Positions 11,851 through 13,976 of a stretch of DNA of 15,887 nt are shown one piece after another (the stretch's first letter is position 1; the number at the start of each line of letters is the position of its first letter). A program made the position numbers and the translations under genes. The notes under the pieces were generated by a model, which saw only the letters and a program-made list of their open reading frames with translations, was not told the origin of the DNA and ran no database searches. This DNA comes from Candidatus Altiarchaeota archaeon (GTDB lineage: Archaea > Altiarchaeota > Altiarchaeia > IMC4 > SCGC-AAA252-I15). Location of the stretch: contig JAZDIN010000019.1 in the NCBI GenBank assembly GCA_043804895.1, positions 1 through 15,887 on the forward strand. The letters run 5' to 3'.

Positions 11851-12058
11851 CGACTTGAGAGAGTATTTGGCTCAACCAAACAAACGTTCGGAAAAACCAG
11901 GTATCATTCTTCCCTCACTTATCTCAACTTTGAAAAACTCTTGTCTATTGTCCCATGTTTTATTCTTGACTTAGAGTAGTCAACCCTTATATCGCCCCAG
12001 CCACGACAAGCCCCTCCCCCACAGGGATTGGCGAGTGACCGCGCCTATTATTGTTCCA

Positions 12059-12072
12059 TTAAAAAAAAATAA
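12059..12072 (-). terminator. Oligo-U archaeal terminator after the 39-aa ORF
   Basis: Minus strand TTATTTTTTTTTAA, about 20 nt after the TAA at 12093-12091. Confidence 0.6.
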
Positions 12073-12090
12073 GTGGGGGTATGGGAGGGG

Positions 12091-12210
12091 TTAGATGTAT
12101 TTTGGCATGAATCCGAGCCTGTGGTAGGCGTACATCCGCCCGAATGTGCTCATGTTCTCTCCATTCTCCTGTGTGGTTGCCTTTCCAAGTCCTAGTATTT
12201 TTCTCATCAT
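12091..12210 (-). CDS. Small 39-aa protein MMRKILGLGKATTQENGENMSTFGRMYAYHRLGFMPKYI, function unknown
   Basis: Below the ORF-track cutoff. GGAGG SD 8 nt upstream (12223-12219), TTTTAAA TATA box at 12313-12307, oligo-T terminator downstream, host-like codons (AGA, ATA, AGG). Confidence 0.65.
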   Translation of the reverse strand: MMRKILGLGKATTQENGENMSTFGRMYAYHRLGFMPKYI

Positions 12211-12226
12211 TTTCTTTGCCTCCGAT

Positions 12227-12282
12227 ACCCCCGGAATCCAAGTGGATAATGAACAGCCAACCACCTTCCATTAGATGGGGGT
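12227..12282 (-). promoter_or_regulatory. Structured 5' leader hairpin of the small-ORF mRNA
   Basis: ACCCCC-ATCTAA-TGGA-A-GGTGG ... TCATT-A-TCCA-C-TTGGAT-TCC-GGGGGT. Four G-U pairs form only on the minus strand; the hairpin starts near the TSS expected from the TATA box (about 12284). Confidence 0.55.
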
Positions 12283-12395
12283 TTGACGTAATAGCTTGGC
12301 CGTTGGTTTAAAAGTACCTTGCGGTAGAGAGCAACGGAAAAGTAATCAAGTAAGTCGACCCGTATTTAATAGACGCACAGGAATAGTATTCTAAG

Positions 12396-13976
12396 GTGGA
12401 ACTGAAACTGGCCGATAACAGGTTTTTCCTGCTTTTCGTCGCCTTCGTATCCGGTGCCTCGATTATGTGCTTGGAGTTGGCTGCTTCGAGGGTTCTGGCT
12501 CCGTCGTTCGGCAGCAGCATATACGTTTGGGGTGCGTTGATTGGGGTTATCATGGCTGCCTTGTCGTTGGGGTATTTTCTTGGGGGATGGGTTGCGGACA
12601 GGGAGGGTGGCATCACTGCCCTGTTCAAGTGCATGGCCTACTCCGGAGTCCTCATCTCACTAATACCTGCTGTGAGCAAGCCTGTGTTAGCCTACACCAT
12701 GCGGTGGGGCCTGGTCTTCGGCCCAGTCGCCGCGTCTTTTATTCTTTTCGCCCTCCCGATGATTTTGCTTTCTATGGTGTCTCCGATGGTGGTGAAAGCG
12801 TATGCTGGGAAGATTTCAACAGTCGGCGGTTCGGCTGGTCTCGTATTCGCTGTTGCTACAGTCGGTAGCATGGTTGGTACTTTCAGTGCTGCGTTCGTGA
12901 TGTTACCGGCCTTGGGGGTGCGGGCCGTGCTCTTGGCTGATGCAGTAGTGGTGTTCCTGATTGGATTCGCGGGTCTTGGTAGGAGGGAGTATCTGCTTTT
13001 GGTTTTGTTTTTGGTTCCTGGTGTCGCGTCAGCGCATGCGCAGTGCGTTGACTTGAAAGGTTTTGAGCTCTTGTATTGCGGGGAGTCAGAGTATAATGTG
13101 ATAGGCGTGTATGATAGTCCATGGTATAGGGTGCTCACGCTCAATGACGGGAGCCTCGTGCAGACCGTGGAGAGGAAGGGTTCACCGCTGACTGGCATGT
13201 ACTATGACGTGTACTCCCTGGGGCCACTTCTAACCAGCGGCAAAAGAGTGCTCTTTTTTGGTTTGGCTGGGGGGACTGCGGTAAAGCAGCTTATCATGTT
13301 CCATGAAGTCAACGTCGATGCTGTTGAAATCGACGGGAAGGTGGTGGATGTCGCTAGGGATTACTTTAACGTCACAGAAGGTGATGGCCTGCGCATTTTC
13401 GTCGCGGACGGGAGGCGGTATCTTTCCGAATCTGGCGAGTATCAACGACCAGCGGCTAAAGCCGCTGGTTTGATACGCCGGAAACTGCCCAACCAAGTGG
13501 AGTCCCTGCGACTGCCCCCTGAAGAGGACAGTTTCCGAGCGTATGACATGGTGGGCGTGGACGTTTTCAACGGCCCGAACCTTCCGGTGCACATGTCGAC
13601 TGTCGAATTCTTCAGTGAGGTTTCAGACCATCTGGGCGATGATGGAGTGGTTATGGTGAATGTCGTGAGCTCCAAAGGGGACAGGAGCGTTGGTGATGCG
13701 GTAGCATACACGATGAAACAGGTCTTCCCGTCTGTGTACACCGTGGACTTGGAGTACAACAGGATTATTGTAGCCTTCAAGAAGGAGACTAGCGAGTCGG
13801 AGGTCATCAGACGCCTTAAAGCCAACTCTAACCCGCTCCTCAAAGGAGTAGTCGAGGGAGCAGTCCTCAACCTCCGCGAGTTCAACGCCGTAAGCGGCGT
13901 GGTGTTGACAGACGATAGGTCAAACATCGAGGAGTTGACGTTCAAGGCCTTCGCATCTCAATGGCACCAGCTGTAG
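12396..13976 (+). CDS. Membrane-domain (MFS-like) fused spermidine synthase-like/SAM-dependent transferase with a 34-aa insertion
   Basis: N-terminal TM region (SGASIMCLELAASRVLAPSFGSS...GSMVGTF); C-terminal Rossmann motifs VLFFGLAGG, VEID, ADGRRYL, YDMVGVDVF; TATTTAAT about 26 nt before the GTG start. Confidence 0.88.
   Translation: MELKLADNRFFLLFVAFVSGASIMCLELAASRVLAPSFGSSIYVWGALIGVIMAALSLGYFLGGWVADREGGITALFKCMAYSGVLISLIPAVSKPVLAYTMRWGLVFGPVAASFILFALPMILLSMVSPMVVKAYAGKISTVGGSAGLVFAVATVGSMVGTFSAAFVMLPALGVRAVLLADAVVVFLIGFAGLGRREYLLLVLFLVPGVASAHAQCVDLKGFELLYCGESEYNVIGVYDSPWYRVLTLNDGSLVQTVERKGSPLTGMYYDVYSLGPLLTSGKRVLFFGLAGGTAVKQLIMFHEVNVDAVEIDGKVVDVARDYFNVTEGDGLRIFVADGRRYLSESGEYQRPAAKAAGLIRRKLPNQVESLRLPPEEDSFRAYDMVGVDVFNGPNLPVHMSTVEFFSEVSDHLGDDGVVMVNVVSSKGDRSVGDAVAYTMKQVFPSVYTVDLEYNRIIVAFKKETSESEVIRRLKANSNPLLKGVVEGAVLNLREFNAVSGVVLTDDRSNIEELTFKAFASQWHQL
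13441..13542. mobile_element. 102-nt non-autonomous IS200/IS605-like mini-element (PATE/MITE-like) inserted in frame
   Basis: Removal restores ...ESGE-Y-DMVGVD. Left hairpin ATCAACG-ACCAGCGGC-TAAA-GCCGCTGGT-TTG and right hairpin ACTGCCCCC-TGAA-GAGGACAGT-TTCC resemble IS605/IscB-element end hairpins with CT(A/G)AAG loops. GTAT at both junctions makes the boundary ambiguous by about 2 nt. Confidence 0.75.

Follow-up and report, generated by a model that had tools for sequence, protein, structure and literature searches.

Long-range pairing between the 5'- and the 3'-region that silences the finished mRNA is a textbook feature of bacterial type I toxins, and it may be asked what such a pairing would do in an archaeon. 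The question is raised by a stretch of 15,887 nt from a genome of the Altiarchaeota (in the following the window), the minus strand of which contains a 39-aa ORF with a 3'-UTR that is complementary to the leader including the SD motif. A first-pass annotation had interpreted this arrangement as a type I toxin-like mRNA switch. The explanation that we favour, in which our confidence is about even, is that an mRNA folding back on itself limits the translation of a lineage-specific small protein that is linked to Orc1/Cdc6.

The TATA box, the SD motif, the ORF and the T-run that had been proposed are all present at their coordinates on the minus strand (Table 1), and the claim that they form a complete small transcription unit is borne out by the conservation of the promoter element, the leader motifs, the ORF, the helix and the T-run. 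The ends of the putative transcript were deduced from the positions of the promoter and the T-run, and the SD motif would be used by the 39-aa ORF; numerous genes in the window appear to be leaderless or to be devoid of an SD motif. A tRNA/tmRNA scan gave no match for the unit. A fused MFS/spermidine-synthase gene is located upstream on the opposite strand, while downstream the start of orc1/cdc6 (NCBIfam NF001624 score of 403.8 bits versus a cut-off of 354) overlaps the stop of the HEPN gene by 4 nt.

Table 1. Features of the small transcription unit and of the genes downstream of it in the window
Feature	Positions	Strand	Remarks
Promoter-upstream element, ACTTTTCCNNNGCNCTC type	12327-12343	(-)	About 14 nt 5' of the TATA box; invariant alignment block
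TATA box TTTTAAA	12313-12307	(-)	Same position in 7/7 aligned loci; putative function
Leader motif 1, GGTGGTTGG	12257-12265	(-)	Near-invariant in the promoter and leader alignment
Leader dyad, ATCCRCTTGGAT	12236-12247	(-)	Predicted hairpin of 4 bp with a 4-nt loop; invariant except for the R position (three alignments)
Closing helix, 5' strand	12219-12232	(-)	Contains the SD motif; complementarity, fold, swap test, comparison of 18 units
SD motif GGAGG	12223-12219	(-)	Within the 5' strand of the closing helix
39-aa ORF, stop codon included	12210-12091	(-)	C-terminal motif Y-x-Y-x-x-L-G-F-x-P; coding selection, narrow family
Closing helix, 3' strand	12075-12088	(-)	Anti-SD plus C-run; first base 2 nt past the stop codon
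T-run	12072-12061	(-)	Likely 3' end of the transcript; putative role
MNT-like gene	11807-11211	(-)	Pfam Polbeta, under the cut-off; PADLOC PDC-M05A for the MNT/HEPN pair
HEPN gene	11224-10712	(-)	Pfam HEPN; PADLOC PDC-M05A for the MNT/HEPN pair
ORC1-type replication initiator gene orc1/cdc6	10715-9594	(-)	NCBIfam NF001624, Pfam Cdc6_lid and AAA

The complementarity that had attracted attention is present: the 3'-UTR segment 12088-12075 can pair with the leader segment 12232-12219 at 13 of the 14 positions, the exception being a C.C mismatch at 12224/12083. Folding of the whole transcript, which had been suggested as a check, resulted in a minimum-free-energy structure that contains exactly the predicted helix (the closing helix). 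The duplex has a predicted energy of -26.5 kcal/mol, compared to -16.8 +/- 2.7 kcal/mol when the 3' segment was shuffled 500 times with preservation of the dinucleotides (z -3.63; 2 of the 500 were as good), here and in the following as nearest-neighbour predictions at 37 °C. The stability of the whole RNA is unremarkable (z -0.30), and therefore the signal is a specific helix and not structure in general. A bulge-helix-bulge motif, as for circularisation, was considered and rejected; the helix of the window has the single C.C mismatch and no 3-nt bulges.

A weak peptide search in related genomes pointed to small ORFs that share the C-terminus, and the related loci have in common the promoter element, the TATA box and two leader motifs, with Orc1/Cdc6 starting a short distance downstream. 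A covariance model of the promoter and the leader, built from sequence only (R1), was run on 61 genomes of the phylum and matched 34 of them, including 20/20 in the family of the window and 2/2 in the sister family; elsewhere only the promoter part was matched. Promoter-only matches are found at one or two extra loci in other genomes. In the two families 21 matches extend to at least model position 113 and therefore include the dyad. In 17 of the 23 loci of the two families orc1/cdc6 directly follows the unit, and the remaining six comprise two with different insertions (the window genome and its congener G002) and four on contigs without an adjacent orthologue. In G002 about 2.5 kb, including an epimerase-like gene, separate the unit from cdc6.

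In a third family, the same small ORF precedes the orthologous cdc6 gene in all nine loci examined and mostly abuts or overlaps its start; in G024 the stop codon overlaps the cdc6 ATG by 4 nt. The promoter element is present in this family, the leader motifs are absent, and no clear helix could be seen by eye. The link between the protein and cdc6 is therefore older than the RNA device. Taken across the three families, the small gene is in fixed synteny with orc1/cdc6 and vertically inherited.

Some additional observations concern copies at other places. The genome G013 contains the small ORF twice: the second copy has the promoter element and lacks the leader motifs, while the leader-bearing copy is not located beside cdc6; in this genome, which is 85% complete, a cdc6 orthologue was not found. 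A scan of metagenomes with the two leader motifs yielded 118 stretches, and among the 80 loci listed R1 confirmed three (four matches), one of which is identical to G013 and one of which is partial and doubtful. On one metagenome contig the promoter plus leader is duplicated at a distance of 1.4 kb, with an antisense gene in between.

The closing helix is found in all 18 units that were compared, with 8-19 predicted pairs and 18 different strand sequences, and it invariably begins 1-5 nt past the dyad and ends 2-7 nt ahead of the T-run (in one unit the leader carries a long insertion, and the 5' window was moved manually). As the register of the helix was lost in a MAFFT alignment of the 18 units, swap and shuffle tests that need no alignment were used. 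With 19 genomes, the cognate duplexes have a mean of -28.3 kcal/mol compared to -18.6 kcal/mol (sd 6.8) for swapped partners, in 13 of the 19 cases the best partner is the cognate one, and not one of 20000 permutations reached the cognate mean. It should be noted that kin share helices, which makes this test harder, not easier, to pass. Shuffling for each genome gave a similar picture, in that at most 9 of 500 shuffles were as good as the native pair in 15 of the 19 genomes. In an RNAalifold analysis of nine close units the closing helix was the only long-range element, and two of its pairs showed compensatory changes. G011 was left out of the helix statistics (near-identical to G020), as were G012, G004 and G022 (dyad absent, or partial model match); G005, the unit of which is split over two contig ends, entered the swap test only. 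In the case of G018, the 3' segment of the swap test missed the partner (rank 17), which was found with the redefined window of the 18-unit comparison. The proposal that the 3'-UTR of the completed mRNA folds back on the leader and the SD motif thus stands as a prediction, with compensatory change across the 18 units.

Complementary arms beside orc1/cdc6 could also be an inverted repeat in the DNA that is bound by a protein, the conserved non-coding pieces being ORB-like elements of a replication origin. Archaeal origins usually adjoin orc1/cdc6 and carry inverted ORB repeats, according to the cited parts of a study that includes the ORB and mini-ORB of Pyrococcus (PMC1904270). The likeness to the elements given there comprises, in addition to the adjacency to orc1/cdc6, a TTCC-containing core in the promoter element and the leader dyad: the promoter element of several genomes contains the core common to ORB and mini-ORB, and the dyad departs from this core by a single inserted base. 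However, both ORB-like boxes are single copies (one dyad per locus), the spacing to the G-run is different, and the interval enclosed by the arms is occupied by a coding ORF, with no AT-rich unwinding element there or between the boxes. Moreover, the arms of the helix are wholly different between genera although the Orc1 proteins are 49-73% identical, as would be expected for base pairing but not for a protein site common to them, and G.U pairs occur in the helix (9 of 261 predicted pairs). We regard an origin as a minor and very improbable rival. As a side observation, the dyad (12236-12247) is followed after 2-5 nt by the G-run (12219-12232), which, at a spacing other than that in the cited parts of the Pyrococcus study, resembles an ORB box with its G-string.

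If the helix forms in the RNA, the most obvious consequence would be that the SD motif is hidden. In the window, the predicted probability that the SD motif is paired to the 3'-UTR is 1.00 (partition-function fold), and burial at P >= 0.5 is predicted for 11 of 17 units compared to 4.2 expected from shuffled 3'-UTRs. Shuffled 3'-UTRs reach P >= 0.5 in about one quarter of the cases, because the 3'-UTRs are C-rich and the SD motif is G-rich. Six of the 17 units (G002, G003, G007, G013, G018 and G008) keep the helix without burial of the SD motif. Where a spacer or an insertion parts the SD motif from the helix, a separate anti-SD stretch is often kept (G001, G015, G005, G009, G017 and G027). 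In G001, G003 and G027 the SD motif is set apart from the 5' strand of the helix by insertions of about 40-80 nt that consist of adjacent hairpins. Burial of the SD motif thus appears to be enriched, but not universal. The blocked SD motif of the first-pass annotation holds, as a prediction, for the window and the 11 units, while its status as the conserved purpose of the fold receives moderate support, given its absence from the other six. The same annotation had also postulated a mutually exclusive nascent hairpin that leaves the SD motif free. In a fold of the leader only such a hairpin indeed forms in the window (12282-12277 with 12232-12227; SD motif free, probability of pairing 0.01) and in a few relatives, but as a conserved switch it did not survive the swap test with 19 genomes (-11.9 kcal/mol for cognate versus -12.25 kcal/mol for swapped partners; 13655 of 20000 permutations were as good).

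Since burial is not predicted for these six units, which nevertheless have the helix, the universal role of the helix may be something else. It might be a clamp for the 3'-end, for insulation or for stability, which aids the stop at the T-run or protects the ends of the RNA, with the burial of the SD motif as a side effect, and a strongly promoted small gene would thereby be kept off the cdc6 promoter with which it shares the T-rich box. This is the closest rival of an mRNA that limits its translation by folding back, and we regard it as possible, though doubtful. The presence of the helix in 18/18 units with an end that always precedes the T-run by 2-7 nt is in its favour, as is the burial of the SD motif in only 11 of 17 units, and in the relatives this T-rich box, about 23-30 nt before the cdc6 ATG, can also be read as the putative TATA box of a leaderless cdc6 mRNA. 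However, archaeal termination is generally held to require oligo-T only, and bacterial intrinsic terminators have a tighter spacing than the 2-7 nt found here from stem to T-run. In addition, the anti-SD stretches that are retained after insertions would be left unexplained by a pure terminator role.

The protein encoded by the unit belongs to a family with a length of about 35-45 aa. In an alignment of 19 small ORFs Gly-Phe is invariant and Tyr and Pro are near-invariant; the codons of the invariant Gly and Phe have a third-position diversity of 0.72 and 0.28, respectively, and a diversity of zero at positions 1-2, and the sequences point clearly to coding selection on the 39-aa ORF. SD-like motifs are found upstream of the small ORFs in relatives. 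The peptide matched no family in Pfam, NCBIfam or PADLOC, and nothing above 0.75 was found for it in the ESM Atlas. A profile search in 1.84 billion representatives yielded 13 matches at E <= 0.001, and 11 of the 12 that were fetched belong to the same small family. Relatives outside the clade were not found among these representatives, and the small protein would thus form a new, lineage-specific family. A metagenome protein of 182 aa (P0007) has repeats with a GF-x-P-x-W-L motif that resembles the C-terminus of the small protein, probably a low-complexity coincidence. A prediction of the complex of the small protein with Orc1/Cdc6 had a score of 0.00 in both runs, with an uncertain fold of the partner.

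Conservation is concentrated in the last ~12 codons, and the N-terminus is variable. This distribution would also be expected if the small ORF were a regulatory upstream ORF for orc1/cdc6, with C-terminal residues that act in the ribosome tunnel and a ribosome at the stop codon that holds the helix open and sets read-through or reinitiation into cdc6. The trp leader, TnaC and SecM exemplify leader-peptide attenuators and arrest peptides in bacteria. The unit shares with them a short ORF before the regulated gene, a stop codon near a helix and a U-run, and conservation at the C-terminus, and its geometry is compatible, since the distance from the stop codon to the 3' strand is 2 nt in the window, and that to the 3' strand or the anti-SD is 0-10 nt in most units, and the ORF stop overlaps or abuts the cdc6 ATG in the third family, as in G024 with its 4 nt. 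Nevertheless, in contrast to the attenuators, the partner of the helix is located upstream of the SD motif of the ORF itself and not in a compact terminator, and the downstream cdc6 gene appears to have its own promoter. In several lineages the motif is followed by 5-30 codons, and this variable distance to the stop codon speaks against an arrest site at a fixed position. In the window, two further genes are located between the unit and cdc6, and one genus (L057, L059, L060 and L065) has instead of the ORF a conserved peptide of only 19-20 aa with synonymous variation, which resembles the N-terminus, namely that of the G014 protein. We therefore consider an upstream ORF of this kind unlikely.

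The very same genus, which retains the leader, the helix and the synteny with cdc6 while having switched to a much shorter peptide, could be taken to indicate that the transcript is chiefly a structured non-coding RNA, in which the leader motifs and the helix are functional and the ORF is secondary. The leader motifs are indeed better conserved than the small ORF, and G010 has the leader and the helix without a recognisable small ORF. Leader motif 1 is non-coding, because the reading frame differs between genomes, and in the dyad columns 1-4 pair with columns 9-12 in 9/9 sequences without covariation (RNAalifold). Still, the coding selection on the peptide is clear, the part that is common to the third family is the peptide and not the leader, and Rfam 15 gave no match at the gathering score in the window and none even at E <= 5 in 11950-12400, so that a chiefly non-coding function seems quite improbable. 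As a pattern for genome-wide searches, the 10-base dyad is at the level of chance (60 of 61 genomes were matched, and controls behaved alike); a cluster of three dyad matches in G024 turned out to be a coding region with tandem repeats and was discarded.

This leaves the initial idea that the peptide is a toxin of a type I toxin-antitoxin system, with an mRNA that is kept inert by the fold-back until it is processed. Toxins of such systems are small, hydrophobic and usually membrane-spanning, and their distribution is patchy and often multi-copy or mobile. In the hok/sok system, long-range pairing of the 5'- and 3'-regions of the hok mRNA keeps the full message inert, and the model includes metastable nascent hairpins. 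The unit resembles hok in that the leader is predicted to pair with the 3' end of the complete mRNA, and it differs from it in that the nascent hairpin is not conserved and that a plasmid or mobile context and a hydrophobic toxin are missing. The cited parts of the work on aapA1/IsoA1 of Helicobacter pylori describe that folding of the full-length mRNA impedes translation and that 3' processing activates it (PMC5416894). A 3' end that folds onto the SD motif and acts as the inhibitory partner is common to aapA1, as described there, and to the unit, for which the long-range SD-hiding fold is predicted in the window and in the 11 of 17 units with burial. Furthermore, the MNT/HEPN pair adjoins the unit. 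However, this pair is an insertion specific to the window genome and is missing in the relatives. The small gene is syntenic with orc1/cdc6, and the family has a match in 20/20 genomes. It is present in a single copy in the window genome, and the peptide has no Pfam or PADLOC match. The caveat of the first-pass annotation that the peptide has no clear transmembrane helix proved to be well founded: it is hydrophilic (GRAVY -0.44, best 15-aa window -0.14) and without a membrane-type segment, and 17 of 19 peptides of relatives remain below 1.0 in their best window, the two above being ORFs that read through the T-run. A hydrophilic, single-copy, vertically inherited peptide in synteny with orc1/cdc6 in an archaeal host differs from aapA1, as far as the cited parts go, in each of these respects. 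Of the four features of type I systems that could be examined the unit lacks three, and a type I toxin is hardly credible.

Regulation of translation that requires both UTRs is not without precedent in archaea. In haloarchaea, translational regulation was shown to depend on the 5'- and 3'-UTRs together (Brenneis and Soppa 2009, PMC2636863), and the remark that no archaeal example has been characterised therefore needs this qualifier; a case in archaea that is resolved to the base pair and has support from covariation was not found in the open-access literature. The abstract of the haloarchaeal study contains neither a base-paired model nor covariation and deals with organisms that mostly do not use SD motifs, whereas the pairing described here is defined to the base, has phylogenetic support and is predicted from the sequence.

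If the mRNA indeed limits its own translation by folding back, the following course of events can be envisaged. The closing helix would join the leader just past the dyad to the last bases of the 3'-UTR before the T-run, and as soon as the 3' end has been made it would shut the mRNA and, in most lineages, bury the SD motif. As the finished mRNA would be shut, ribosomes would therefore load mainly during transcription, or once the helix has been reopened. Candidates for reopening are trimming of the 3' end, a helicase, a factor bound to the dyad, or a ribosome that terminates at a distance of 0-10 nt before the 3' strand. The outcome would be a low and tightly gated synthesis of the small protein beside the cdc6 promoter. 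The unit, the coding selection, the synteny and the covarying helix are shown by the comparison of genomes, and we infer the ends of the transcript, the use of the SD motif, the gating of translation and any link to the function of Orc1/Cdc6.

A more specific version, which is speculative and in our view rather unlikely, would be a 'translate-at-birth' mRNA at the locus of the replication initiator, in which the finished message is locked by the helix and the dyad hairpin is the handle for a protein that reopens it, either Orc1/Cdc6 or the small protein itself. This invariant hairpin has a distance of 2-5 nt from the helix, and Orc1/Cdc6 would be a candidate, as the dyad and the promoter box resemble the ORB core. 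In this case, the synthesis of a small partner of Orc1/Cdc6 would be tied to the status of replication or repair, and the firing of the cdc6 promoter would likewise be tied through the shared T-rich box. The unit would then be one arm of a replication and repair regulon, given the promoter box before the XPD-like helicase gene and the radical-SAM/HhH gene.

The promoter element has two exact and five one-mismatch matches in the window genome, compared to two for a control with the reversed pattern. It precedes a radical-SAM plus helix-hairpin-helix gene, an XPD/Rad3-like helicase gene, and genes for a KaiC/RadA-like ATPase, PspC and an unknown 62-aa protein, and this recurrence looks like a small replication/repair regulon. 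Another 44 nt upstream, the short intergenic region that precedes the divergent MFS/spermidine-synthase gene contains a degenerate second copy of the element (12371-12387 on the minus strand, 12 of 17 positions by eye).

The functional statements on the unit are predictions for uncultured organisms. With this proviso, and at a confidence that balances belief and doubt, the unit represents a conserved regulatory arrangement for a new small protein that is not a toxin. A fold-back design that is textbook knowledge for bacterial toxins would here be attached to a small protein that accompanies orc1/cdc6 across an order of the Altiarchaeota. With the closing helix, post-transcriptional control in archaea could be studied on an RNA element that is defined and can be mutated, the promoter element is a candidate operator common to the unit and to repair genes, and the new family of small proteins may comprise partners or regulators of the replication initiator.
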